The notes: generated by a model not told the origin, from the sequence alone. A stretch of 64,000 nucleotides of DNA from a virus (IMGVR_UViG_3300035686_000005:1-64000); one strand, 5' to 3'; shown: positions 11,749 through 61,769, numbered from the stretch's first letter. Made by a program: numbers and translations.

Positions 11749-13296
11749 ATGCTTGCAACAACAAACAATCAGTCTCAATCTCTTGTAATTTCCAATAGAC
11801 TTACGACTGAGCAAATAGAACTAATCAAACGCACTATTTGTAAAGGTGGAACAGACGACGAATTAAATTTGTTTATCCAACAATGCAACAGAACCGGATT
11901 AGATCCTTTCTCTAAACAAATCTATGCTGTAAAGCGTTATGACAGCAAGGCTAAAAGAGAGGTAATGAGTGTTCAGGTTTCTATAGATGGCTTGCGTTTA
12001 AACGCTCAACGTACAGGAAAATATCGAGGGCAGTTAGGAGCTTTTTGGTGTGGAATGGATGGGGAGTGGAAAGATGTTTGGTTGTTAGACAATCCCCCAG
12101 TAGCTGCCAAAATTGGCATTTTACGCTCTGATTTTTCAGAACCGCTTTGGCAAGTAGCCAGATATAAGAGTTATGTTCAGACCGTTCAGGGTGGCAGTCC
12201 TAATTCATTTTGGGCAAGAATGCCTGATATCATGTTGGCAAAATGCGCTGAAGCATTAGCGCTTAGAAAAGCGTTTCCTCAAGAGCTTAGCGGATTGTAT
12301 ATCAATGAAGAGATGCCCCCTGAATTTATCGAGGTCGAAAGCAACGTAGTTGTAGAACCGGAAGATGCACCGCAAAAAGAAGAAAGGGCACAACCCAAAA
12401 AAACCATTGTAATACCTACAAAAGAATCTGAGAAGACAACAGAGAAATTTGACCGGGATTACTGGATGCAACAAACCACCGATGAGCTGAAACGTCTTAC
12501 ATGGACTTCAGACAAAGGAAGAGACTATTTGATTGCAAACTTCAACGGTAAGCGTTCACGTCAAATTTTAACTGATGAAGAGTTGAAAGCATTTGCTCTC
12601 ATGCTTAAGGAAGAGAAAGCTCAAGAAAAATTAAACATTTCTGATGTTACTCTTTCTTACTTGAATGATGTTGCAAAGTTTTTTAACATCAGTCCACAAG
12701 TGTATCAAACCGAGATTAAGCGCTATACCGGAGATATGACTCAGATAATTTTTGAGTCTATTATGCGCGTCATGGTTACGGCGTTTACTAAGGATCGTGG
12801 TCTTGATTCTAAAGGAATTTGGGAAAACTTTGTAGAAGATGTTAAGCCACAAAAATACTCCTTTGAGTCAATCCAATCATGGGTTAATAAATTCTCCGAG
12901 ATCCCGTCAGATGATTCCGTACAATCTCCTGAAGAGTTCAAAGACCCTAACTATCTGTATGAAGTTGCAGAGATTCTATATGTAGATTCAGACGATCTTG
13001 ATGCAGAGATTGACAAGTATCAAGACAAATTAAGTCATTCAGACTATTTGGAAATTTTGGTTTGGATGGCTAAATGGTATGCAGATGCTGAAGCTAAGAA
13101 TGTTGAAATGGCTGAAGAAAGTTTCAATAAACATGTTGCTGTCAATGGTTATGCATTAGAAAGCATCGAAACTTGGAAAGATGCTTTTTACACAGCAACC
13201 GACAACGATTACTTACCTGTTGAGGAATATGAACAAACAAAAAGACAAAATCTCAAGCTTCTTGACAAAGATGTTACAGATGCAATAAGCGACTAA
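11749..13296 (+). CDS. Bet/RecT-family single-strand annealing protein with long C-terminal extension
   Basis: [42 protein letters not shown]...[16 protein letters not shown] fits the phage Bet N-terminal pattern; terminator at 13317-13340. Confidence 0.7.
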
Positions 13297-13316
13297 CAAC
13301 AATTCAACTGACAAAA

Positions 13317-13340
13317 AGCGCTCTTAACGGGGCGCTTTTT
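13317..13340 (+). terminator. intrinsic terminator
   Basis: AGCGCTC...GGGGCGCT followed by TTTT; follows the Bet gene. Confidence 0.65.
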
Positions 13341-13346
13341 ACTTTC

Positions 13347-13359
13347 TAAAGTTACTTTA
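13347..13359. repeat. TAAAGTWACTTTA copy (W=T)
   Basis: perfect; last TTA is the stop of the TIR gene (minus strand). Confidence 0.95.
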
Positions 13360-14004
13360 TTCTATTCCATTGATAATCTTAAGTAGTTTTCTGAAGCTTC
13401 CTTCAAAACTATCTGATTCTCTGAAGAATAGCCAATTGATATTTGCAATAGTATCTGGGATGTCTGCAATGATTTCTCGCCTCAAGATAGGAATAATTTT
13501 TTTACCACGTATTCTTGCATACTCTAGTTCATTAATGCAGACATCAGATATTGCATAGTCTTCAGACAGGACACATATGAAAAAGCATGATGAGTCGATG
13601 CCTTCTATAATGACCTCTTTCCAATAGTCGCTTGATTGTATATCTTCATAGTCTACCCAAGCATCATGTCCAGACTTTTTAAGCTGGTAGTGCAACCGTT
13701 CTACAAAGTCTTTATCTTTTCGGCTGTAAGAGATAAACAAATCATTGCAGAGCGCATACTTCTTTATGACTGTTGTAATCAATCCGTTTGCAACTATCCT
13801 ACGCTCTCCGGACATTGACTTAAGATGTGTCGCAACTATACCAAGATGTTCAACAGCACCAACAAAGCTACCTATTTGGATAATGTCACCTTTTTTGTAG
13901 TAGCCTCTAGTCCGGACAATTGCGCCCCTAATTAGATCGTTGATTAAGTCTTTGCAGACATACACGGTTGCAGCTGCCAGAAATACAGACAGATTTTCAT
14001 TCAT
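13357..14004 (-). CDS. TIR-domain protein fused to an MscS-like beta-domain
   Basis: C-terminal LFISYSRKDKDFVERLHYQLKKSGHDAWVDYEDI...VCINELEYA...KIIPIL (TIR_2 pattern, Glu retained); N-terminal GDIIQIGSFVGAVEHLGIVATHLKSMSGERRIVANG (MscS beta-domain pattern). Confidence 0.75.
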   Translation of the reverse strand: MNENLSVFLAAATVYVCKDLINDLIRGAIVRTRGYYKKGDIIQIGSFVGAVEHLGIVATHLKSMSGERRIVANGLITTVIKKYALCNDLFISYSRKDKDFVERLHYQLKKSGHDAWVDYEDIQSSDYWKEVIIEGIDSSCFFICVLSEDYAISDVCINELEYARIRGKKIIPILRREIIADIPDTIANINWLFFRESDSFEGSFRKLLKIINGIE

Positions 14005-14008
14005 TTTC

Positions 14009-14021
14009 TAAAGTAACTTTA
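14009..14021. repeat. TAAAGTWACTTTA copy (W=A)
   Basis: perfect; between divergent starts 14004 (-) and 14045 (+). Confidence 0.95.
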
Positions 14022-14044
14022 GAGCTATACTTAAATAGTAATTG

Positions 14045-14434
14045 ATGGAAGGATATATGGAAACTACGGGATTAGAACTATTGAGAAGCCATGCAAGATC
14101 TTTAGAAGATCTCATCAAAAAGATGACTGATGATGAAGACGTGATACTTATAGATACTGGCTGGTGTTTAGGTCTTGTTGCCCAAAATATTCTTGAATGT
14201 TTTGAGATAATAGCATCAGAATTGCCCGAAACATCAAAACCTTTTTTAGCTAATGATATACATACAGTAGCAGAGCTTTTAGAGAGGGCAGCATTTATTG
14301 CTACCGAATCAGAATCACACATTGATTTGTTGGCTATGTCCTACTTGATAGCTAGAGCTTATGCCAAAACCCAATCAATAGATAGAAAGTATGGTCAGCA
14401 CGTCATACAAGTATTAGAAGCTGAAAGCAATTAA
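14045..14434 (+). CDS. hypothetical protein
   Basis: ATG 14045 (track starts at TTG 14042); divergent from the TIR gene with only motif 14009-14021 between them. Confidence 0.55.
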   Translation: MEGYMETTGLELLRSHARSLEDLIKKMTDDEDVILIDTGWCLGLVAQNILECFEIIASELPETSKPFLANDIHTVAELLERAAFIATESESHIDLLAMSYLIARAYAKTQSIDRKYGQHVIQVLEAESN

Positions 14435-14505
14435 ATTTATTTGGCTACATTGTAATAATTTTAAAGTCCTGCTTAAAATATAAGTGGGACTTTCAATTTG
14501 TAGAC

Positions 14506-14739
14506 ATGACTAACCAATACTTTCAAAACTGTGATTTAACTGGATGTCAGTTTTACCGATTTGGTAAAGAATATATTTTTCATGTGCCACCTAAACACCC
14601 AGATCGTTTTATTATCAGGCGAGATCTTCTAGACATGGGATTAATAGAAGAGAAGGATATGTTGCAGATTCATTTTGTCATCAAGCCAACAGCTGAGCAA
14701 TTTGATATTTTGAATTCAGCTTTTGGAATAGAATTCTAA
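14506..14739 (+). CDS. hypothetical protein
   Basis: 77 aa; ATG is fused to TTGTAGAC (14498-14505); motif begins right after the stop. Confidence 0.55.
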   Translation: MTNQYFQNCDLTGCQFYRFGKEYIFHVPPKHPDRFIIRRDLLDMGLIEEKDMLQIHFVIKPTAEQFDILNSAFGIEF

Positions 14740-14752
14740 TAAAGTAACTTTA
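14740..14752. repeat. TAAAGTWACTTTA copy (W=A)
   Basis: perfect; begins right after stop 14737-14739; 4 nt upstream of the -35 at 14757. Confidence 0.95.
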
Positions 14753-14756
14753 TGGC

Positions 14757-14785
14757 TTGCATATTGCAAACATAATTGTTAGTAT
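14757..14785 (+). promoter_or_regulatory. sigma70-like promoter
   Basis: TTGCAT-N17-TAGTAT. Confidence 0.55.
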
Positions 14786-14811
14786 TTACTTGTAGTCACT
14801 CAATACTTCTC

Positions 14812-15687
14812 ATGCAAGATTTAACCCAACAAGCAAGAATGAATCAGAACACAAATCTAGAAGGCTTTAAGCTAATCAACAAGGCATTAGAAGGCACCGA
14901 CTTAAAGTGCAGGATATTTTATGACAGTTTCAACGATTCCTATTACTGGGAACACAATCAGATCAGATGCGATCCGTTTGATAATGTATACGATGCAATT
15001 GCTGGATTGATTTGGCATATTCAGGCTTTAGCCAATTCAAAAACTGAAGATGATCTAACAAGATCCATGTATACGCCTCAAGAGTTTATTGAGACAAGAA
15101 AAAAAGAGCATTTTGCTGTCTTCAATAAAATCTCACGAGCATTAGACAGCACGGCTGTTGATTCTGCAATAAATTATGATTCGTCCACCGATCAGTTTCA
15201 TTGGAGACATAAAAGAATAACCAGTGATGGGTACTTCAACATTTATGAAACCATAGCGGGTTTAGTTTTTCATCTAGAATCTTATGAAGTTTCCACAAAA
15301 GAGTTAACCTTTTTTGATTCGGAGTTTATCAAAGCTTTGGTTGATGCGCTTAGAACAACCGGGTTTAGCCTTGAATATGATTCAACACACAACACCTATA
15401 GCTGGACTCATTTAGACCAAGATACCCGCTTAGGAACTTTTATCGACCTGATACCGGGAATAAGAGAGGTCTTGAAGTATTGCAACTCTGAAATTAAGAA
15501 GACTCAGAACACTCAAAAAACTTTTGAGAAGTTGGCAGATACAGAGCGGAAATTAACCAGCCAAGAAGCTTATATACGAAAGCTGGAATTGCAAAACGCT
15601 GATTTGAGCGCAAGAAACGAAGAGTTGAGAAGAATAAACGATGTGATAATAAAATCACTGTCCAACAAGGCTTTAGATACTTTTTAA
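14812..15687 (+). CDS. hypothetical protein with three internal repeats and a C-terminal coiled coil
   Basis: start moved to ATG 14812, downstream of promoter 14757-14785; repeats YDSFNDSYYWEHNQIR.., YDSSTDQFHWRHKRIT.., YDSTHNTYSWTHLDQD.. Confidence 0.6.
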   Translation: MQDLTQQARMNQNTNLEGFKLINKALEGTDLKCRIFYDSFNDSYYWEHNQIRCDPFDNVYDAIAGLIWHIQALANSKTEDDLTRSMYTPQEFIETRKKEHFAVFNKISRALDSTAVDSAINYDSSTDQFHWRHKRITSDGYFNIYETIAGLVFHLESYEVSTKELTFFDSEFIKALVDALRTTGFSLEYDSTHNTYSWTHLDQDTRLGTFIDLIPGIREVLKYCNSEIKKTQNTQKTFEKLADTERKLTSQEAYIRKLELQNADLSARNEELRRINDVIIKSLSNKALDTF

Positions 15688-19161: not shown

Positions 19162-19661
19162 TGGCTGGCAATTTTTTTGAATATGTAATCGGTGAAGTTC
19201 AAGGCATAACTGGCAACAGTAAAGCAACAAAACAAAATAAAGCTGGGGGTTTTGATTCAGTAGAGACGGGAGCTGATGTCAATAGAATTAAAGGTCTTGA
19301 TACAGCGTTAAAAACTTTCAATAAAGCAGCTGTTTTGCCAACGTCTACCAAAAAAGAAACGATTAAAGCGGCTGGTATATTAGCTAATCAGATTGCAGCT
19401 GGTAACGGCAAGTTGGCTGAATTGGCTCAACACAGAATGAAGATTGCTCAAGGGATTGATAGAAGATTGCAAATACAGACTACTTATCAATCAGGTATGC
19501 AAAACTTGAACATAAATATTGAAAGGAATCTTGCTCAGTACGGTCAAACAACCGAAGCAAACAACCTAAAGCAAGAGGTGATAGAGACTGGTTACACCGC
19601 ATGGATGACCGAGTGGAATGGAGAGACAGACGCCATAGCAGCTGCGTTGGATAGTTTCTGA
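19161..19661 (+). CDS. hypothetical protein
   Basis: 166 aa, TAATG stop-start overlap with the upstream gene; terminator 19685-19710. Confidence 0.6.
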   Translation: MAGNFFEYVIGEVQGITGNSKATKQNKAGGFDSVETGADVNRIKGLDTALKTFNKAAVLPTSTKKETIKAAGILANQIAAGNGKLAELAQHRMKIAQGIDRRLQIQTTYQSGMQNLNINIERNLAQYGQTTEANNLKQEVIETGYTAWMTEWNGETDAIAAALDSF

Positions 19662-19684
19662 GTTATGGGGAAAAATAGAACTGT

Positions 19685-19710
19685 GAGGGGGTCACACCCC
19701 TCTTTTTTTT
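19685..19710 (+). terminator. intrinsic terminator
   Basis: GAGGGG...CCCCTC followed by T8. Confidence 0.7.
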
Positions 19711-19740
19711 GTAAACTTTGATTTTGCTCTAGATAATTAT

Positions 19741-19758
19741 TTGTAGTCATGTTAAAAT
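19741..19758 (+). promoter_or_regulatory. promoter-like box TTGTAG-N6-TAAAAT
   Basis: same geometry as 502 and 16922; 38 nt before ATG 19797. Confidence 0.4.
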
Positions 19759-19770
19759 TCAGAAAAGTCG

Positions 19771-19783
19771 TAAAGTTACTTTA
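19771..19783. repeat. TAAAGTWACTTTA copy (W=T)
   Basis: perfect; 13 nt upstream of ATG 19797. Confidence 0.95.
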
Positions 19784-19796
19784 GAGGAAAGTCAAA

Positions 19797-20087
19797 ATGA
19801 TTAGATGGTTTCGTGACTCAGGATTTGTTCAAGCATATACAGCTTTGGGATTGTTTACAGGTTTTATGGCGACTGCCTTTGGAGAATGGATTTTTGCATT
19901 TTTCATTTTAGGTTTAGCTCTTTTTTTAATGGTGATAATGACCATAAAAAATGCAATGAAACTATCCGCCAAGCTGCCAGATAAACCCATACAACAGTTG
20001 TTTTTGACTGTTGGAATTTTCTATTGTGTCATCTATGGTTATTTGCTATTTGCTTTTTTGTTTGGATTAATTCAAGGAGCTAGGTAA
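19797..20087 (+). CDS. membrane protein (3 TM)
   Basis: 96 aa, strongly hydrophobic; promoter-like box 19741-19758 and motif 19771-19783 upstream. Confidence 0.65.
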   Translation: MIRWFRDSGFVQAYTALGLFTGFMATAFGEWIFAFFILGLALFLMVIMTIKNAMKLSAKLPDKPIQQLFLTVGIFYCVIYGYLLFAFLFGLIQGAR

Positions 20088-20088
20088 C

Positions 20089-21624
20089 GTGGATATTCGG
20101 AAAAAGATAGAACACGTCAACAAGATTCATTACGATAATCTGTTGTTGTGTGGATGCATTCAAGCGATCAGTTTGACTTTGATTTTATCTCCGTTGCTTG
20201 TTGGATTTACTGGGCAAAAAATGTCAGACGGTTTAAAAGCTAGATATTTTATGCTTGGTTTTATGTCCTCTCTTGCTCAATCAGCCGTTGCACAATTCTC
20301 TGGTAAAAATTCAGCTCTCAAGCGTGTTTACGATGATTACATTAAGAAAGGAACTGCCAGAGAAATTGTTAATACTGCAAAGTTGGATGAGGTAATTGAT
20401 ACTATCGGAGGTCAGGAAAGCTTGGTTCAGATAGTTGAAACAATGCCTGATTTTAAAAAGCCAAGGTACATCGCCCAGTTCAAGCTACAAGGCTTGCTTA
20501 AGCCTCCCCAACAGCCGCAAAACACAGAACAAGGACACAATAACCACAACGGAGAAGTAACGGTTAAGAAAGCTTTACCAGTCATCAACAGAGAAATCGA
20601 ACAGATTCTTGATATTTCGTGGATGAATCATGCTTTTTTCTTCCGGTCAGCTGTGATATTAGGTGCTGAAGGAGACGGCAAAACATCATTGCTTGCATAC
20701 ATGGCGATAAACATTTTTGATATTTGTCCAGATGTTGATCTAAAAATTCACAATATTCACTACGATCCAGATGATGAGGATGATCGGTGGTTTCCTGGAA
20801 TGCCTAAAGATGTTGAGGCTAGCCTATTCATTACTGATCCGGCAGAGTGCATTGCAGACATGAGGGCAGTCTATGCAGAGATGCAGCGAAGAGTAAATGA
20901 AGAAGGCAAGTTCAAGGGAGTTCCAGTAATCCGAATCGTTGATGAATTCCAAGGTTTAAAGGATTTGGTCAGCGAAGATGAGTGGGAAGATTACTTGAAT
21001 TGTATGAAGCAATTGAAAAATCAGGGGCGCAAATATGCTAAAAAGGTTAACGGTCAAGATACAGGCTTCAGAGTTATTGCCGGTATGCATTCCTTAAAAA
21101 AGGGTGAAACAGGTTTAGATTCTGGCTTTTTTGCGGGTGCTAACATCGTGTGTATGGGAAATACAATCACGGATCAAAATACGCCGTTTCCTTCAGATTT
21201 CAATACAAAACAGTTAGTAAAGGAAATAGGCATGGCTAACGCCCAACTAGTATCAATGGGTCTTTATAACCCTGCTACACCCCACACAGACAGAGCTAGA
21301 GCAGCAGTTACCCGGTTGGGTAAAGAGTCTCCATGTATCCGAATTTTCCCTAGGTTTGATTTGAGCAATTTGTCCTATCGGGTAGTAGAAACTACTAACA
21401 CCGTTACTGAGGATAGTCAATACCAAGAGTCAAATCAGAAAAAAGAATCTACAGCCGATCAATATGCTGGAGATGACTACATGGCAAAACTGAAGACTTG
21501 GTACACAGCTAAGAAAGGTGATGTTACTGACGACGATCTAAAACAACAAATGTTTATTTTGTCAGGCAAAGTTATCCCGGACGATTTACTACAACAGCTG
21601 AGGAGAATCTTGGATGAGTCGTAA
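20089..21624 (+). CDS. FtsK/SpoIIIE-like P-loop ATPase with N-terminal TM helices
   Basis: GTG start; Walker A GAEGDGKTS, Walker B IRIVDEFQGL, GRKY..GFRVIAGMHS; hydrophobic N-terminus. Confidence 0.6.
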   Translation: MDIRKKIEHVNKIHYDNLLLCGCIQAISLTLILSPLLVGFTGQKMSDGLKARYFMLGFMSSLAQSAVAQFSGKNSALKRVYDDYIKKGTAREIVNTAKLDEVIDTIGGQESLVQIVETMPDFKKPRYIAQFKLQGLLKPPQQPQNTEQGHNNHNGEVTVKKALPVINREIEQILDISWMNHAFFFRSAVILGAEGDGKTSLLAYMAINIFDICPDVDLKIHNIHYDPDDEDDRWFPGMPKDVEASLFITDPAECIADMRAVYAEMQRRVNEEGKFKGVPVIRIVDEFQGLKDLVSEDEWEDYLNCMKQLKNQGRKYAKKVNGQDTGFRVIAGMHSLKKGETGLDSGFFAGANIVCMGNTITDQNTPFPSDFNTKQLVKEIGMANAQLVSMGLYNPATPHTDRARAAVTRLGKESPCIRIFPRFDLSNLSYRVVETTNTVTEDSQYQESNQKKESTADQYAGDDYMAKLKTWYTAKKGDVTDDDLKQQMFILSGKVIPDDLLQQLRRILDES

Positions 21625-48182: not shown

Positions 48183-50411
48183 TCAAACAAATAAACTCAA
48201 CTGCTCAACTTCCTCTTTCAGGGGTTCAGGTTTAAATTCATCCAGAAAGCAAGCCATCTCTTCATACATTTCTCGAAGTATGTCTGCATAATGAGTAACG
48301 TCATAATCTCCCGTTGTAGTTGGCTGTCCATCAATTCCAATGTAGTAGCTTACCGTGTCTCGTTCCTGTCCAAAACCAAGATTAATCAGTTTTACTTCTC
48401 CTACTCTAATTTTACGAGTTACTGTTAGCTGATCCTTTGGGTATTCTCCAGAAACTAGTAAAGCCAGTGTCTCTTGGTAGTAATCGATTGCAGACTTAGG
48501 CGACTCAGCATACAGTTCTAAAAACCTCACTTGGAATTTCTTCTCAAGAGGTAACTTATCTCGTTTCTTGTATCTTCCTTTGGCGGTCAAACCAAACTTT
48601 TGTTTTTTAGGATTCCACTCAACCTTGATGTAGTTTTTCTTGATATTGCCTAGGTCTAGATCAATCCCGAATTTCATACAAGCTTGCATTATTCGATTGT
48701 AGGAAACCTTTTCGGCTCCGAAATTATCCACTATCCATTGATAAAGTTTTGGGTCTTTTGAAACTGATTTTTCAATGAACTTTTTACCGTTTGTTGTCTT
48801 AAATTTGTAGCTTTTCTCAAAATTTCTCGGTACATCCTCAGGCGGGATAAACAAAATTTTATTGACAGCTTCTAAATCAAGTTTCGATCCAGATGGTATA
48901 TTTTCTTTGATTTGTTCAACTATTGCAACGGCTGAAAGTAGCTTATCACTGGGATTAGGAGGAAGCTTTTTAAGTGTTTCCTGAGATATTGGATAATACT
49001 TGTGTATGTCTGTTTTGTCTGTCTTGACGTATACAGAATCAGTATCTGTCAGAACAACTTGACCACCCATAGCCTCAACAAATCCCATAGCCCACTTAAG
49101 TCTTGCACGAGCAAACAAAGTAACCATTGCAGCTGCAAAGCTATCACCATAAGGAATCTGGGCTTTTAAAGAACCGTATGCACTATTTAGAACTGGCTTA
49201 ATTGCAGTTGTCAAATCAATCTCAGCTTGAGTGATATTTTCCTTATACTTGATTGCCATCCTATACTCAACCCCTTGTTGCATGATTGCCAACATAAGCA
49301 TGTCAGGATCGTGTTGAGAATGAATTCCATATTGCATCATGCATGAAGGATATTGACCTGAAAAGTCACACCCTGCAACATCCGTGTGAATTCCACTCAC
49401 TGTATGAGTAATCGCCCCCTGAATACCATAGGGGACATTAGGCGGCAAGCTTTTTGTATTGGCTTCCCCATAGTAATCGTCTAAATTTGAATTCCACTTT
49501 GAAGCATTACCCGATGTTGCCAACTTTTGCAAGTTGTATTTAGGAAAGTAAACCAACTGATAATAGAGAGACGGCATTAAAAAATCGGCTAGCAATTGAG
49601 TATCTTCCAAGTCATAAAAAAGGTACTCTTTAACTGATTCCCAATTGCCCGTTCTATATGCCTCCTCAAGACCTTCTAAACCTAAATCGAGTCTAGGTGT
49701 GTCCCTTAGTCCAAGCTGTATTGGAAGTTCCTTTAAGCTGTACTTGGTAAACTTTCTGAGTACTGAGTCATAGGCAATCGCTAGTTGGTAAATATCAACG
49801 TGATCGCATCGCTTACCATTGAATTTGCAATACACGGGATAGAACCCGATGTCTTGATAACGTCCAGCCAACTCCGCAGCCGCAAACCTGTATTGATAAT
49901 CGTAACTAATAAAGAATGGACTTCTTATTCCTAACTGCTGTGACTTGTGAAATAGATAGGACAAATCGAAGTTTGTTCCATTGAATGTAAAAAGAATATC
50001 CGGTTGCTTCTTATTGAGAAATCGAAACAGAATCTCTAACATTTGAAGTTCTGATTCTTCTCTAATAAAAACTTTTTGACCCTTCTCATTCATTATCCCG
50101 ATAGCTTTTAGCTGAGAAGATTTAGCCCTCAATTCAGGGTCATCAGTTAATATCTTGGTTGTTTCAATATCAAGGTAGACTTTGGTTAAATTCTCATAAG
50201 GCTCTAAAGTTACTTTAGATTGCCACGTAGGAACGGTCTTTGATGTCACACTAAATATGTCAATACAGCGTTCAGGAGGTGTGATAATATTACCTTTATA
50301 GACAAAAATCCATTCCCTGACTTCATCACAATGCAATTGTCTATCAGCTAACTCGTTATAACGACTTTTAATTAATTGGTACTCGGCTTCAGTCAATTCT
50401 CTATCGTCCAT
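48183..50411 (-). CDS. polB: family B DNA polymerase
   Basis: Exo I DIETT, Exo II FNGTNFDLSYL, Exo III YLFYDLEDT, motif A DFSGQYPS, motif B KPVLNSAYG, motif C LTDTDS. Confidence 0.9.
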   Translation of the reverse strand: MDDRELTEAEYQLIKSRYNELADRQLHCDEVREWIFVYKGNIITPPERCIDIFSVTSKTVPTWQSKVTLEPYENLTKVYLDIETTKILTDDPELRAKSSQLKAIGIMNEKGQKVFIREESELQMLEILFRFLNKKQPDILFTFNGTNFDLSYLFHKSQQLGIRSPFFISYDYQYRFAAAELAGRYQDIGFYPVYCKFNGKRCDHVDIYQLAIAYDSVLRKFTKYSLKELPIQLGLRDTPRLDLGLEGLEEAYRTGNWESVKEYLFYDLEDTQLLADFLMPSLYYQLVYFPKYNLQKLATSGNASKWNSNLDDYYGEANTKSLPPNVPYGIQGAITHTVSGIHTDVAGCDFSGQYPSCMMQYGIHSQHDPDMLMLAIMQQGVEYRMAIKYKENITQAEIDLTTAIKPVLNSAYGSLKAQIPYGDSFAAAMVTLFARARLKWAMGFVEAMGGQVVLTDTDSVYVKTDKTDIHKYYPISQETLKKLPPNPSDKLLSAVAIVEQIKENIPSGSKLDLEAVNKILFIPPEDVPRNFEKSYKFKTTNGKKFIEKSVSKDPKLYQWIVDNFGAEKVSYNRIMQACMKFGIDLDLGNIKKNYIKVEWNPKKQKFGLTAKGRYKKRDKLPLEKKFQVRFLELYAESPKSAIDYYQETLALLVSGEYPKDQLTVTRKIRVGEVKLINLGFGQERDTVSYYIGIDGQPTTTGDYDVTHYADILREMYEEMACFLDEFKPEPLKEEVEQLSLFV
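50205..50217. repeat. TAAAGTWACTTTA copy (W=T)
   Basis: perfect; inside polB (SKVTLEP). Confidence 0.95.
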
Positions 50412-59002: not shown

Positions 59003-59839
59003 TTAGAAAACCGATAATCCCCTGATCACAATGTTGTTCATTACCGCCAAGTTGGTCTGCTGCGAACCTTGCAACAGCTTGTCATAATCAGACGGCTTAT
59101 GCTTTTTGAGATAAGCTTTGAACAACAACAATGCAGAGTCAAGCGTTCTGAATCGTTTCTTTGCATACTTGTTAATGTGCTTTAGTAACTCTGGAGTGAA
59201 GATGTCTGCATTGATTTCATCTGTAATATCACCTGTGAAAATGTAACCGTTCATGTCTAAGAACTGATCAATTGCATCATCTACACTCATGGTTGCATTA
59301 GGCGGTTCTGACAACTCGATACCAAGCATCGACTCTAAAGCGTTTACCATTTTCCAATCATTACGTTCTTTGGCGTTGAGTATCAGACGATAGGTTCGCA
59401 ACACTTCGCTATTGGTAAGATTGTGTCCTTGTTGTGTGTTGTTTGGAACTGTACGCTCTGATTCTTTACGGAATCCACAAACATCTTGGATTGTTGCCCG
59501 AATGCCTACACGGGCAAATGCTCTGTATGCTGCTTTAGCAATATCGGTGCAATATCGCCCAGCTTCAAAAGCGTAGTATTCAAGAATTACTGATAAAGCT
59601 GTGTCGGGTATTCCGTGTATAGCAAAGGATTCTAGCTTACCACCCCAAAAGCCTTCATCACTAAGCATTTCAGCCAATTTAGAGGCTAATAGCTTACCAT
59701 CATTTTGAAACCCTTGAACTAATCCAGTGTGAGCAACACCCGCCAATCTGGCAGCACCTCGAATACTGCAATATCCAACACCATCAGCATCTACACGTAG
59801 CTCTTTCTGAATCTGCTCGAAAACGGTTATACTTGACAT
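59003..59839 (-). CDS. hypothetical protein (possible DNA-binding)
   Basis: start moved to ATG 59839 (MSSITVFEQ); the track's 27-aa extension runs into a hairpin. Confidence 0.55.
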   Translation of the reverse strand: MSSITVFEQIQKELRVDADGVGYCSIRGAARLAGVAHTGLVQGFQNDGKLLASKLAEMLSDEGFWGGKLESFAIHGIPDTALSVILEYYAFEAGRYCTDIAKAAYRAFARVGIRATIQDVCGFRKESERTVPNNTQQGHNLTNSEVLRTYRLILNAKERNDWKMVNALESMLGIELSEPPNATMSVDDAIDQFLDMNGYIFTGDITDEINADIFTPELLKHINKYAKKRFRTLDSALLLFKAYLKKHKPSDYDKLLQGSQQTNLAVMNNIVIRGLSVF

Positions 59840-59865
59840 AGGAAATCTTCGATTTAGATTTACAC

Positions 59866-59894
59866 GCCCTCGTGATTGCGGGGGCTTCTTTATT
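59866..59894 (+). terminator. hairpin plus TTCTTTATT (unit A of the 59.9-60.2 kb array)
   Basis: GCCCTCG-TGATTG-CGGGGGC. Confidence 0.5.
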
Positions 59895-59970
59895 GTAGCC
59901 AATATAAATACGACACACAATGCAGATTAGTGGTATACTCAGGTAGTCTGATCTCTCAAGTGGTAATCAC

Positions 59971-59995
59971 GCCCCCTTGCTGGGGCTTCTTTATT
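59971..59995 (+). terminator. hairpin plus TTCTTTATT (unit B)
   Basis: GCCCC-CTTGCT-GGGGC. Confidence 0.5.
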
Positions 59996-60011
59996 GCAGA
60001 CATGCTACAAT
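59994..60011 (+). promoter_or_regulatory. promoter-like box TTGCAG-N6-TACAAT
   Basis: follows hairpin B; no ORF downstream. Confidence 0.4.
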
Positions 60012-60040
60012 ATAAGCTCTTGCATTTCAATTGGTGATAT

Positions 60041-60068
60041 GCCCTCACTAGCTGGAGGCTTCTTTATT
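60041..60068 (+). terminator. hairpin plus TTCTTTATT (unit C)
   Basis: GCCCTC-ACTAGCT-GGAGGC (one bulge); resembles 15727-15744. Confidence 0.45.
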
Positions 60069-60084
60069 GCAGACATAGTATAAT
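60067..60084 (+). promoter_or_regulatory. promoter-like box TTGCAG-N6-TATAAT
   Basis: follows hairpin C; no ORF downstream. Confidence 0.4.
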
Positions 60085-60113
60085 ATAATCATTACATTAC
60101 ATCCTGTTATCTC

Positions 60114-60148
60114 AGCTGCAAGTTCTAGACGCTTGCAGCTTTTTGTTT
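60114..60148 (+). terminator. intrinsic terminator (unit D)
   Basis: AGCTGCAAG...CTTGCAGCT 9-bp stem followed by TTTTGTTT. Confidence 0.6.
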
Positions 60149-60178
60149 GATATTATAATAGTCTTCTTATTTCTTATC

Positions 60179-60208
60179 GCCGTTAGCCACTCCGCTAGCG
60201 GCTTTTTT
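60179..60208 (+). terminator. intrinsic terminator (unit E)
   Basis: GCCGTTAGC...GCTAGCGGC followed by TTTTTT. Confidence 0.6.
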
Positions 60209-60214
60209 ATTGAA

Positions 60215-60227
60215 TAAAGTTACTTTA
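60215..60227. repeat. TAAAGTWACTTTA copy (W=T)
   Basis: perfect; after terminator 60179-60208. Confidence 0.95.
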
Positions 60228-60287
60228 GCAACCGTGTATAGTTGCGTTGTGAAGTTTCTAATTTTTCGAAATTTATAAGTGAAGCCG

Positions 60288-60330
60288 TGCAGACATGACT
60301 GATTGTGTCCTTTGTTGTCTCATGTCTGCA
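60288..60330. repeat. 11-bp inverted repeat TGCAGACATGA / TCATGTCTGCA
   Basis: arms 60288-60298 and 60320-60330, 21-nt spacer. Confidence 0.85.
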
Positions 60331-60331
60331 A

Positions 60332-60344
60332 TAAAGTCACTTTA
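60332..60344. repeat. degenerate motif copy TAAAGTCACTTTA
   Basis: central C instead of W. Confidence 0.7.
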
Positions 60345-60601
60345 AAGGGATAGTATTATATCATACTTCTCTCAGGAAAGGAAGAGGGGGTAAATTAAGA
60401 TTGTGTAAAGATTTCCACACGAAACACACAATTTAAGGAAGTGCCAGTTATCAAGGGTTTCAGCTCTTGGCACTCACACGAAACGGCGAGAGTCTCACAA
60501 AATAAAAAAATCTACGTGAGGCATACACAGCAAAGGTTCTAGCCGTTTTCTCTCGACTCTCGCACACTCCAGGTTAGACAGACTTGGAAAAAATAAATAA
60601 A

Positions 60602-60619
60602 TTACCCCCCCCTATTCCA
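60602..60619 (+). repeat. C8-tract element TTACCCCCCCCTATTCCA
   Basis: first of five C8/G9 elements in 60.6-61.04 kb. Confidence 0.9.
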
Positions 60620-60711
60620 TTAATTGAACATGTCTGAATTTATCCTTATGTCCTTTTGTCGCCTTCTTTTTTGGCGCTTTATTTCCTAAATATATTTGTT
60701 ACTTCAGTTAC

Positions 60712-60729
60712 CAGTAGAATATTCTACTG
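60712..60729. repeat. perfect 18-bp palindrome CAGTAGAATATTCTACTG
   Basis: read directly from the sequence. Confidence 0.9.
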
Positions 60730-60734
60730 CCAGC

Positions 60735-60749
60735 TAGGGGGGGGGTAAA
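60735..60749 (-). repeat. inverted C-tract element (TAGGGGGGGGGTAAA on +)
   Basis: G9 run 60737-60745. Confidence 0.9.
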
Positions 60750-60913
60750 CATTTATTTTTTGGCGAATCATACTCTCTTAAAGTATCGAGAGGTTGTGAG
60801 AAATGGCTGAAACCCTTGATATATATGCCTCACGTAAATTTTTTTCATCCGAGAGAACACACAAATTTTGTGTGAATCGCTGAAACCTATACACAGCAAG
60901 CCACACAGAGATT

Positions 60914-60928
60914 TAGGGGGGGGGTAAA
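60914..60928 (-). repeat. inverted C-tract element (TAGGGGGGGGGTAAA on +)
   Basis: G9 run 60916-60924. Confidence 0.9.
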
Positions 60929-60977
60929 AATATTGTAATATATGCCTCACGTTGGTAAAATACGTCAAAAAAATATA

Positions 60978-61036
60978 TTACCCCCCCCTATTCCACAAGT
61001 TGCATATTTACCCCCCCCTATTCCACAAGTTGCATA
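60978..61036 (+). repeat. tandem 30-bp direct repeat, two copies of TTACCCCCCCCTATTCCACAAGTTGCATA
   Basis: 60978-61006 and 61008-61036. Confidence 0.9.
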
Positions 61037-61246
61037 AATTTCCCCTAACAACATCGACAGACAACAGAGGACGCACTAACGCCTTACCACTGCCGTTTGC
61101 CTGCGCTTTAGAGACACGCTAAGAAGAATCGGGTGTGATTGCACATATATAGATGTCGGTTGTCTGAACCGAATCTAGACTTATGCACTTTTTTGCATAA
61201 TATACGGATACAAATAAACCGAGTATTTATACTCAAGGGAATGCTC

Positions 61247-61259
61247 TAAAGTTACTTTA
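61247..61259. repeat. TAAAGTWACTTTA copy (W=T)
   Basis: perfect; 8 nt upstream of the -35 at 61268. Confidence 0.95.
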
Positions 61260-61267
61260 GAAAAAGC

Positions 61268-61296
61268 TTGCACAATTTTAGAATTGTAGTTATAGT
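61268..61296 (+). promoter_or_regulatory. sigma70-like promoter
   Basis: TTGCAC-N17-TATAGT. Confidence 0.6.
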
Positions 61297-61322
61297 AAAT
61301 ACAGTTACTCAGAGAGAATCAG

Positions 61323-61769
61323 ATGAAGCTGACTTACAACGATCGCAATTATGCCTCAATTCCTCCATCAGAATGGATGTTCATAGCTAACAAATCTGTT
61401 GAGCTGATTAGCGATTCTGTTGTTACCGCAATTGAGGAATATGAACCTCATTTAAGACCAACAGACGCGGCTATCTACTACCTAGAAGACAAGCACGGTT
61501 ATCGAATAGCCAACTGTTATAAATCAATGTTTTGGTCAGATTGGGAAATACTATTATTTCCTAATCCCCACATAGATGAAACCTTGCGTATCAATAAGCT
61601 AGACATGCAAGTGACGAAACAGTTTCATCAAGGCATGGATTATTTTAACAAAGGTTATTCTATGCCAGTAGAGGACAGTCCCTTAAAAGATGGCTGGATG
61701 GCAGCTAGGGAGATGGATCAAATCAAGAAACGTTACCTGCAACAGTGCAAAGAAACTTTTGTTTTCTAA
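61323..61769 (+). CDS. hypothetical protein
   Basis: 148 aa; TTGCAC-N17-TATAGT promoter 61268-61296; stop TAA is the first triplet of motif 61767. Confidence 0.6.
   Translation: MKLTYNDRNYASIPPSEWMFIANKSVELISDSVVTAIEEYEPHLRPTDAAIYYLEDKHGYRIANCYKSMFWSDWEILLFPNPHIDETLRINKLDMQVTKQFHQGMDYFNKGYSMPVEDSPLKDGWMAAREMDQIKKRYLQQCKETFVF

Follow-up and report, generated by a model that had tools for sequence, protein, structure and literature searches.

A two-fold symmetric, repeat-dense non-coding locus as a candidate replication origin in a novel phage related to Nostoc and Anabaena phages

Iteron origins of primase-helicase replicons are a known kind of element, and the pri-rep-ori region of SaPIs, the pathogenicity islands found in Staphylococcus aureus, was reportedly the subject of work by Ubeda et al. 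in 2007 and 2012. In the SaPI origin, the iterons lie directly downstream of rep, their halves oppose each other around a centre, and they are recognised by a self-loading superfamily 3 helicase (PMC9371898). In cyanophages of the A-1/N-1/Elbi type (Elbi is an Anabaena/Nostoc phage with a genome announcement, PMC8297451), phage stocks were shown in 2026 to contain a ~30-kb segment, between inverted repeats, in either orientation (bioRxiv 10.64898/2026.02.14.705889). Here we describe a gene-free locus, initially annotated at 60240-61260, in the viral genome IMGVR_UViG_3300035686_000005 (hereafter W), of which 64,000 bp out of a 65,249-bp circle were analysed (the window). On sequence comparison it is a conserved cis-acting DNA element, and quite possibly an iteron-type, two-fold symmetric, bidirectional replication origin within a divergent early control region, a reading that we hold tentatively. 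The comparison set comprised three metagenomic lineages (L012, L013 and L019), L024, and the phages N1 (L025/L026) and A1 (L027). We use M1 for the 18-mer GGCTGAAACCCTTGATAT, the module with the strongest conservation, and C-box for an A-rich stretch followed by T(T)A, C(n) and T(A/C).

The gene-free stretch extends over ~1.4 kb, from a leftward 278-aa gene (start 59839) to a rightward 148-aa gene (start 61323), and is the exact divergence point of two transcription blocks. In accordance with the initial annotation, it holds no credible open reading frame (ORF): gene calls are empty there, and tblastx against the loci of three relatives found no conserved ORF. No tRNA was found in the locus, and Rfam 15 gave nothing at gathering score in the whole window and only chance-level matches (E>1) in 59700-61400. 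Every repeat previously listed was recovered, with positions off by at most one base. The C8 tracts lie at 60605-60612, 60981-60988 and 61011-61018, the G9 tracts at 60737-60745 and 60916-60924, and a weak G5 tract at 60386-60390; these homopolymers are indeed unusual, in that all C/G runs of at least 8 in the window fall in the locus. The 30-bp tandem repeat is present (Tandem Repeats Finder, 60973-61045, 2.4 copies, 90% matches) and contains an exact 29-mer starting at 60978 and at 61008. The 15-bp inverted pair (60450, 60806), the 18-bp perfect palindrome, the two copies of ATACACAGCAA (60523 and 60889) and the inverted pair of TGCAGACATGA are all as described, as are the direct copies of TATGCCTCACGT at 60824 and 60941, whose inverted copy begins at 60514 and not 60513. 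The statement that the locus carries only one degenerate copy of the genome-wide motif did not hold, since the degenerate copy at 60332 is accompanied by a perfect TAAAGTTACTTTA at 61247-61259. A further perfect one, at 60215, stands just beyond the range first given, so that perfect copies flank the unit on both sides, and the locus itself extends leftward to ~59866.

Recurring 10-mers cover 395 of 1021 nt of the locus, the top 1-kb value in the window (1-kb windows: median 46, 95th percentile 116; shuffles: mean 24.5, maximum 114). These repeats are interdependent, being parts of one imperfect palindrome with arms at 60504-60612 and 60738-60845 (74% over 111 nt; 95 of 139 positions match). 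The inner arm ends are formed by an A-tract/C8 box and a G9/T-tract box, which face each other across 120 bp, and three more boxes are grouped on the right-hand side of the palindrome (60914-61020). A/T tracts border every C-box, and TTACCCCCCCCTA with up to 2 mismatches finds the five C-box sites only, in 64 kb.

The C-box is restricted to the gene-free region in four lineages, with tract lengths from 5 to 12. In W there are five C8/G9 tracts. L012 carries C12 and G12, which face each other 82 nt apart and are its only C/G runs of at least 6 in 22.8 kb; in L013 the tracts are C7 (three copies), C6 and G5, and in L019 they are G11, C10 and C6-7. Each genome has one face-to-face pair, and tract length is alike within a genome and varies between genomes. 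The box pair of L012 sits in a ~440-nt palindrome, and the palindrome of L013 is weak (z about -2). The primase-like proteins of the box-bearing lineages share 28-41% identity with that of W, and the replication proteins of relatives with conserved boxes are just 23-57% identical. Further short modules are common to W and its relatives (GCTGAAACC(C/T)T..ACACAG, GTGAGGCATAC(A/G)CAG, ATTGCAGACAT, TGAATCGCT and AGTATTTATAC). Once homopolymers are masked, L013, L019, L024 and the A1 inverted repeat have more k-mers in common with the W locus than all, or nearly all, control segments do. Around these cores stand dense repeats that are lineage-specific: TGTAC-type in L013, L024 and N1, GGTTCAAG in L013, GTTACA in A1, and ATACGCA with GGTAACTGAG in L012. 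Conserved cores amid lineage-specific repeats read as the mark of sites on which proteins assemble and which evolve together with the proteins that bind them. Independent assemblies agree in tract length and orientation (W with L011; L012 with L015 and L016). In general terms, a cis-acting hub is supported: the boxes and several short modules are kept in gene-free regions, where neither an ORF nor a known RNA family is conserved. The tract placement of a phase-variable contingency locus was not found, the tracts lying in no ORF and a promoter-like frame occurring in box 2 only.

The M1 core is found far beyond these phages. The 18-mer occurs in 106 GTDB genome stretches versus ~17 expected by chance, about a third of them cyanobacterial. 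In IMG/VR its 16-mer has 60 distinct sites, 36 of which lie outside long ORFs; short repeats flank 29 of these 36, versus 46 of 85 random non-ORF positions, and often form opposed, contig-specific arrays (L153, L182, L193, L167, L173 and L178). Only a core of 16-25 nt is conserved among the viral contigs, between lineage-specific repeats. At 6 of 11 examined M1 loci, a D5_N/DUF5906, VapE/DUF5906 or Toprim-type gene (the last in L148, with AAA_25) ends 18-140 nt upstream, and in two of these six a PriCT_1 primase gene precedes. Likewise, the primase-helicase-like gene of L024 ends at 1728, and the M1-bearing gene-free region (634-1727) begins at the 3' end of the gene.

W encodes a 916-aa protein, the primase of the initial annotation, that is a putative primase-helicase and distantly related to the D5/DUF5906 class. 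In pairwise comparison it is related to an 866-aa protein of L019 (E=7e-87, weak DUF5906 match) and a 929-aa protein of L024, with invariant DxD, H and GxSxTGKS (Walker A) motifs, and a word-indexed search among 5.8 billion proteins found two other homologues only. A structure-based fold search was abandoned, as the AlphaFold model (predicted local distance difference test score 48) was too poor to be used.

Like the origins of SaPIs and other phage-inducible chromosomal islands (PICIs), the W locus has two opposed sets of short, lineage-specific repeats around a centre: the arms carry M1 or M1-like copies, TATGCCTCACGT and CGAGAG repeats in mirror order, and L012 is built likewise. The SaPI/PICI replicon combines a primase with a D5/DUF5906-class helicase, and it is in such a setting that the M1 core was found in unrelated viral contigs. 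Unlike the SaPI origin, the W locus lies 7 kb away from the helicase-like gene and does not follow it directly, as the M1-bearing regions do in L024 and the six IMG/VR loci; it is ~5 times larger, its centre does not appear notably AT-rich, and it belongs to a 65-kb myovirus with its own PolB and, very probably, a cyanobacterial host. Neither poly-C/G boxes nor a conserved 18-mer core are in the account of the SaPI origin (PMC9371898). Judged from the sequences compared, the members described here are new, as are the symmetric poly-C/G boxes of 5-12 nt kept across lineages, the 16-18-nt core that spans phyla, and the apparent correspondence of the local palindrome of W and L012 to the distant inverted repeats of A-1 and N-1.

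We favour a replication origin because boxes and modules are conserved without coding, the locus is symmetric and stands at a divergence point, and M1 lies beside primase-helicase genes elsewhere. The 916-aa protein or another initiator would bind the opposed repeats and open the DNA between them, whereupon two helicase rings would load head-to-head or back-to-back. Replication would then proceed outward both ways, co-oriented with the two divergent gene blocks, and the origin would be regulated or insulated by the tandem left-hand promoter-terminator cassettes and the right-hand promoter. The G/C tracts might serve as fixed boundaries, as R-loop anchors, or as start or recognition signals for priming, the last because a primer made on a poly-C template is oligo-G. 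It is common for a viral origin to coincide with divergent promoters, and in other systems duplicated origins in inverted repeats isomerise genomes.

This reading remains tentative because direct proxies failed and M1 is not exclusive to origins, and the following points weigh against it. By nearest-neighbour stability the locus has no outstanding unwinding element, the least stable 30-120-bp windows of the genome all being elsewhere; of the 590 windows of 50 bp that exceed the instability threshold of 2.5 sd, only 2 are in the locus. The skew at four-fold sites has no replication component (difference -0.03, p=0.66), and bulk GC skew merely tracks the coding strand, so GC skew was discarded as origin evidence. 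DnaA-box-like sites are weakly enriched and none is perfect; a DnaA-box cluster was rejected, as matches reach 8/9 at best and the enrichment rests on the tandem duplicate. The locus is not adjacent to the 916-aa gene (60240 versus 53266), no sequence match to the protein came from Pfam or PDB, and its assignment as a primase-helicase is unproven; the roles given to the G/C tracts are purely inferential. In addition, M1 lies ~1 kb upstream of terminase genes at 3 of the 11 loci (L172, L173 and L178), has an integrase adjacent or nearby in L182 and L172, and is followed by a serine recombinase in L161 (outside the 11); it also stands 5-10 nt from tRNA 3' ends and within a chromosomal cyanobacterial element. 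M1 is therefore neither diagnostic of nor exclusive to origins. In short, the origin proposed in the initial annotation has gained indirect comparative support, and an unwinding element, replication-linked skew and anything better than weak DnaA-box-like sites are missing. We note that the origin reading and the alternatives below are not all mutually exclusive.

The initial annotation also offered a multi-operator control region. Such a region agrees with the left flank (59866-60340) and with the 61268-61296 promoter, and it is probably present together with an origin. That the locus serves early transcription control only is, in our view, unlikely. It would then consist of operators for phage regulators (KilA-N, Bro-N or helix-turn-helix, HTH) and of hairpin terminators or insulators, with the facing tracts as a bidirectional terminator-like barrier. 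The strong sigma-70 promoter on the right and P1 on the left (59910-59939), which is conserved with L013, agree with this, as do the excesses of terminator-like sites (6 versus 1.6 expected) and promoter-like sites (12 versus 6.5). The ATTGCAGACAT box overlaps promoter spacers and is kept in L012 (at 13302 and 16302) and L013, and genes for DNA-binding domains stand beside the locus in W (PHROG BstA-like N-terminus), L012 (Bro-N), L019 (HTH and Bro-N) and L024 (KilA-N). The order of A-tract, GC stem and T-tract is like that of ordinary bidirectional terminators of the W genome, and box 2 of W and the N1 box fit TTTACC-17-TAnnnn. However, most C-boxes lack a -10 element at a workable distance (the other four W boxes and those of L012 and L013 have none), and sigma-70 promoters were rejected as a general account of the C-boxes, since a usable -10 occurs in W box 2 and N1 only. 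Moreover, the 'terminator' loops would be 30-120 nt long, the flanking regulators are non-homologous across lineages and the modules are conserved nonetheless, and the link of M1 to primase-helicase genes elsewhere would be left unexplained.

As for the left flank itself, its tandem plus-strand hairpins (59866-60202) have no upstream plus-strand gene, and three of the four are followed by CTTTATTG(C/T)AG(A/C)CA and a -10-like hexamer. These units look like mini promoter-terminator cassettes for RNAs of ~45-55 nt, or like attenuators aimed into the locus.

The repeats of the nearest cultured relatives bear on a different alternative. The inverted repeat of N1 measures 724 bp (98.3% identical, 19656-20378 and 49276-49999) and that of A1 717 bp; one N1 copy lies in a gene-free gap, 444 nt from the primase start, at a switch from minus to plus strand. 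Like the W locus, the A-1/N-1/Elbi repeats are non-coding and iteron-rich (400-724 bp), with one copy at the primase-side strand switch, and 15-mers are common to both, namely the N1 box GGGGGGTAAAAATAT and, in A1, AAAACGGCTAGAACC and TGAGTATAAATACTC. Overall, the sequences of the W locus and of these repeats are not alignable. The two inverted copies are separated by 29-32 kb in A-1 and N-1, whereas in W and L012 they adjoin, with 82-120 bp between them; self-comparison of W found no inverted match of more than 50 bp beyond the local palindrome. The local palindrome of W and L012 is the apparent equivalent of the distant A-1/N-1 inverted repeats. One might then suppose a recombination element, in which such repeats have collapsed to a cruciform-forming palindrome for inversion of the 120-bp spacer or as a hotspot of recombination-dependent replication. 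The coexistence of both A-1/N-1 isomers in phage stocks (bioRxiv 10.64898/2026.02.14.705889), the very stable long hairpins into which W and L012 fold (z -7 to -9.5) and the RecT-like annealing protein encoded by W are consistent with that proposal. Nevertheless, we hold it distinctly unlikely: W has no distant inverted copy, independent assemblies have the same orientation, the L013 palindrome is weak, and a non-exhaustive scan of the W ORFs turned up no gene for an integrase, an invertase or an HUH protein. The A-1/N-1 inversion may itself be a by-product of the duplication of a functional element, and so not define its function.

The folding of the locus raises the question of an RNA. Both strands fold far better than shuffles, the minus strand (-156.6 kcal/mol) better than the plus strand (-135.8 kcal/mol), and G-U-compatible mismatches number 14 on the minus strand versus 5. 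Promoter-like sites aim into the locus, from P1 in W and from both sides in L013. In addition, at least 12 cyanobacterial genomes carry M1 inside an intergenic element of ~250 nt, between unrelated housekeeping genes (alignment A2: L029, L041, L046, L048, L063, L080, L084, L091, L100, L126, L130 and L060). Its helices, which are long-range, pair GGAACAG with CTGTTCC, ACGCTAAG with CTTAGCGT (with compensatory changes), GGGCTGAAA with TTTCAGCCT, and TGTACCA with TGGTACA. The element has no Rfam match and no description in the literature searched for motifs, and could be a structured RNA or a MITE-like (miniature inverted-repeat transposable element) sequence; L024 fits its profile (E=5.6e-7), and W matches over the 17-23-nt module itself only. 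A kin of this element, yielding structured non-coding RNAs as hairpin transcripts from the inward promoters and small RNAs from the left-flank cassettes, is nevertheless an improbable account of the W locus. One clean RNA helix was rejected, as 20 of the 39 arm mismatches pair on neither strand; the L012 strands have equal z-scores, the hairpin context of M1 varies among copies, Rfam gives no match, and four plus-strand terminators separate P1 from the palindrome.

The abundance of M1 in genomes, with several copies per metagenome-assembled genome (MAG) in some bins and elements with terminal inverted complementarity, also suggests mobile-element debris. On this view, small non-autonomous elements (MITE-like or IS200/IS605-derived and HUH-nicked) would have landed in the gene-free gap and left the repeats as remnants that do nothing for the phage. 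M1 contains TTGAT and CTTGATA, which we take to be known HUH cleavage motifs, and A-1 has a tnpB gene beside its inverted repeat. Against this, lineages that are saturated with substitutions elsewhere have kept the position, the boxes and the set of modules, the cyanobacterial element has no C-boxes, viral contigs conserve only the 16-25-nt core amid lineage-specific repeats, and phage genomes rarely retain 1.4 kb of useless DNA; we consider debris very improbable.

Assemblies break near the boxes: L016 ends 22 nt past C12, L019 begins 11 nt before G11, and the L013 contig, one of four to carry its primase-like protein and 42,974-42,976 bp long, ends inside the locus, ~240 nt past the last box. 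The breaks could reflect coverage loss, inverted-repeat isomers or true ends, and among the relatives they alone speak for the packaging or termini region named in the initial annotation; M1 in other contigs, as said, may precede terminase genes. A cos or pac site nonetheless seems extremely improbable and found little support here. The portal and putative terminase genes of W (44.1-47.7 kb) are 13-15 kb distant, the nearest cultured relatives, A-1(L) and N-1, package by headful and have circularly permuted genomes with terminal redundancy (PMC4916379), the assembled contigs of W and L012 (65.4 and 64.3 kb) run across the locus, and assembly artefacts are common at long homopolymers or palindromes.

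To return to the replication origin, several systems offer parallels for its parts. The RSF1010 oriV has two inverted hairpin sites, ssiA and ssiB, on opposite strands, from which a plasmid-specific primase starts divergent leading-strand synthesis (PMC8567376). Both RSF1010 and W have two inverted hairpin-forming sites in an iteron-type array, and are unrelated in sequence; each RSF1010 site spans 40 nt and RepB' is a separate small primase, whereas priming by the W hairpins is only putative. Some archaeo-eukaryotic primase-polymerases of mobile genetic elements need a short template motif, GTG for pRN1 ORF904 and TTTGGTTA for NrS-1 (PMC8718748). A requirement of that type could explain the conserved M1 core or the C-box of W, although the motifs differ. 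More distantly, the W locus can be likened to two further arrangements, as analogies only, the proteins, hosts and sequences being unrelated. In herpes simplex virus, oriL is palindromic and oriS lies within inverted repeats that isomerise the genome. Archaeal origin recognition box (ORB) elements are inverted initiator boxes, each with a G-run ('G-string'), that flank the unwound region.

A wider hypothesis, conceivable but doubtful, is that the 16-18-nt core GCTGAAACCCTTGATA(T) is a hitherto unrecognised cross-phylum cis-signal for priming, nicking or loading, which starts DNA synthesis of primase-helicase replicons and has been reused in the ~250-nt cyanobacterial element. The poly-C/G boxes would then be a cyanophage-specific part of the origin (G-rich primer or R-loop anchors, or bubble clamps), and duplication 30 kb apart would give rise to the A-1/N-1 isomers. 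M1 contains CCCTTGATAT, in hairpin-loop position in W and L024, and its CTTGATA-type sequence presumably resembles known HUH nick sites of the pC194 or phiX174 type. No HUH/Rep family was found among the W ORFs scanned and the precomputed Pfam lists, the scan being not exhaustive. Other candidate roles for M1 were set aside: a hairpin-loop structure shared by all copies (the copies are inconsistent), a CRISPR-repeat mimic (the CRISPR-like repeats of L019 end in GGGATTGAAAT, with no match past GAAA(C/T)), the start of a small ORF (ATGGCTGAAACC..., in which the ATG is not kept among copies), and an attP core (the same non-exhaustive ORF scan revealed no integrase in W). The features of the locus are collected in Table 1.

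Table 1. Sequence features of the W locus (coordinates of the window)
Feature	Position	Strand	Details
Left flank	59866-60202	+	Four terminator-like hairpins: 59866-59885, 59971-59986, 60114-60140, 60179-60202
Promoter-like elements alternating with the left-flank hairpins	P1 59910-59939; CTTTATTGCAGACAT boxes 59989-60003, 60062-60076		TACAAT or TATAAT after each box; a perfect TTGACA-17-TATAAT promoter of L013 (18505-18535) aligns with P1
Genome-wide palindromic motif TAAAGTTACTTTA, left boundary copy	60215-60227
TGCAGACATGA inverted pair	60288-60298 / 60320-60330		Within 60288-60344
Inverted CTTTATTGCAGACAT box	60322-60336
Degenerate genome-wide motif TAAAGTCACTTTA	60332-60344
Weak box GGGGGTAAATTA (G5)	60386-60397	-
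M1 inverted copy	60441-60473	-	AGCTGAAACCCTTGATA (60449-60465) in the loop of a GTGCCA/TGGCAC hairpin; stem-plus-loop layout also in L024 (1175-1228)
CACACGAAAC direct repeats beside inverted M1	60416-60425 and 60475-60484
Palindrome, left arm	60504-60612		M1-like AAAACGGCTAGAACC (60535-60549, -), a 15-mer identical in the A1 inverted repeat; ACGTGAGGCATA (60514-60525); CGAGAG/CTCTCG repeats
C-box 1, AAAAAATAAATAAATTA-C8-TA	60588-60614	+
120-bp spacer between the face-to-face boxes	60615-60734		GTCGCC/GGCGC hairpin; 18-bp perfect palindrome CAGTAGAATATTCTACTG (60712-60729)
C-box 2 (G9 on + strand)	60735-60761	-	Promoter-like TTTACC-17-TAGAAT on - strand
Palindrome, right arm	60738-60856		M1 GGCTGAAACCCTTGATAT (60805-60822) within a GTGAG/CTCAC hairpin, nhmmer E=0.002 to the cyanobacterial 'context A' profile, 18-mer identical in L024 (1188-1205); TATGCCTCACGT (60824-60835)
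M1-like copy TGAATCGCTGAAACCTATACACAGCAAGCC	60873-60909	+	75% over 40 nt to L012 17500-17539; 90% over 20 nt to L013 19198-19217
C-box 3 (G9)	60914-60934	-	GGGGGGTAAAAATAT, a 15-mer identical in the N1 inverted repeat
C-boxes 4 and 5 (C8 at 60981 and 61011) in the 30-bp tandem repeat	60967-61045	+	Each followed by TATTCCACA, an 8/9 match to the cyanobacterial DnaA-box form TTTTCCACA
Palindrome GAGTATTTATACTC (61221-61234) and right boundary genome-wide motif (61247-61259)	61221-61259		15-mer common with the A1 inverted repeat; 11-mer common with L013 at 19306
Sigma-70-type promoter TTGCAC-17-TATAGT	61268-61296	+	For the rightward early genes (148-aa gene starts 61323)

The palindromic 13-mer that bounds the locus, TAAAGT[A/T]ACTTTA, has 67 copies in the window versus 0.5 expected (e.g., at 458, 535, 26339, 58137, 58178, 60215, 61247 and 61767). 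Most copies are at gene boundaries, often over a stop codon, before a terminator hairpin, or 4-10 nt upstream of a -35 element; some are within ORFs, and the central base is independent of gene strand. The L012 counterpart is TAAAGT[C/G]ACTTTA. The motif is analogous to the multi-copy intergenic motifs of A-1 and N-1 (43 and 21 copies), discussed as possible 'stoperators' (PMC4916379). N1 and A1 also have dispersed C6-run motifs (CCCCCCGGAATCA, at least 11 copies in N1, and CCCCCCGGAGTCA in A1), distinct from both the N1 inverted-repeat box and the W genome-wide motif. L012 has a second gene-free region of 1.8 kb (13100-14890) at a strand switch, one gene from the C12/G12 region, packed with ATACGCA (~25 copies), GGTAACTGAGTAAC (~12) and TTGCATCCATGCAATG palindromes. 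In L019, three CRISPR-like repeats (...AATCCCTATCAGGGATTGAAAT) lie at 984-1155, 64-76 nt apart and ~600 nt from the C-box cluster, an arrangement reminiscent of the CRISPR array that cyanophage N-1 is said to carry.

W itself is a circle: a Logan contig from SRR11830169 is 100% identical to the window and joins its two ends. The 1,249 bp outside the window hold an FHA-domain gene and a KilA-N gene, and the public copy of W (65,390 bp) exceeds the circle by 141 bp, which fits the k-mer overlap of a circular assembly. The gene content is myovirus-like (Mu-type portal, tail sheath, baseplate, PolB, RecT-like, ParB-like and Dam-like methylase). By PolB, the closest cultured relatives are the Nostoc/Anabaena phages N1, A1/A-1(L), Elbi and YongM (30-36% identity). 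The DNA of W has no similarity to 50,697 phage records in near or distant search modes, tblastn of its 916-aa and 595-aa proteins gave no match among known phages, and scans of IMG/VR, Joint Genome Institute metagenomes and GTDB genomes with its primase-like protein or the profile of that protein found no relatives. From these comparisons we regard W as a novel phage that is distant kin of N-1 and A-1. Its host is very probably a cyanobacterium, because a Waterburya MAG is the source of one relative and HIP1 sites are present in relatives.

Two further observations concern defence. GATC is absent from L012 (22.8 kb) and L013 (20 kb) and present in 244 copies, the expected frequency, in the window, which has a D12-class (Dam-like) methyltransferase gene at 1050-1868. 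This suggests that the relatives may avoid a GATC-specific restriction system, which W would counter with methylation. At 13357-14004, on the minus strand, a 215-aa protein fuses a TIR domain (TIR_2, E=1.5e-26) to a segment like a mechanosensitive-channel beta-domain; it is odd cargo for a phage early region and may have a link to defence or anti-defence.

The cyanomyoviruses akin to N-1 and A-1 and their metagenomic relatives have had no defined origin so far, and the W locus is a concrete, testable candidate with conserved elements. It also bears on the role of the inverted repeats that isomerise the A-1 and N-1 genomes, a question raised in 2026. The homopolymer tracts matter practically, in that assemblies of such phages break there, and C/G tracts of 8-12 nt, if they are a conserved symmetric component of an origin, would be unusual. 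If the 18-mer core is a general signal of D5/DUF5906/VapE replicons, origins would become locatable in many phages and satellites.

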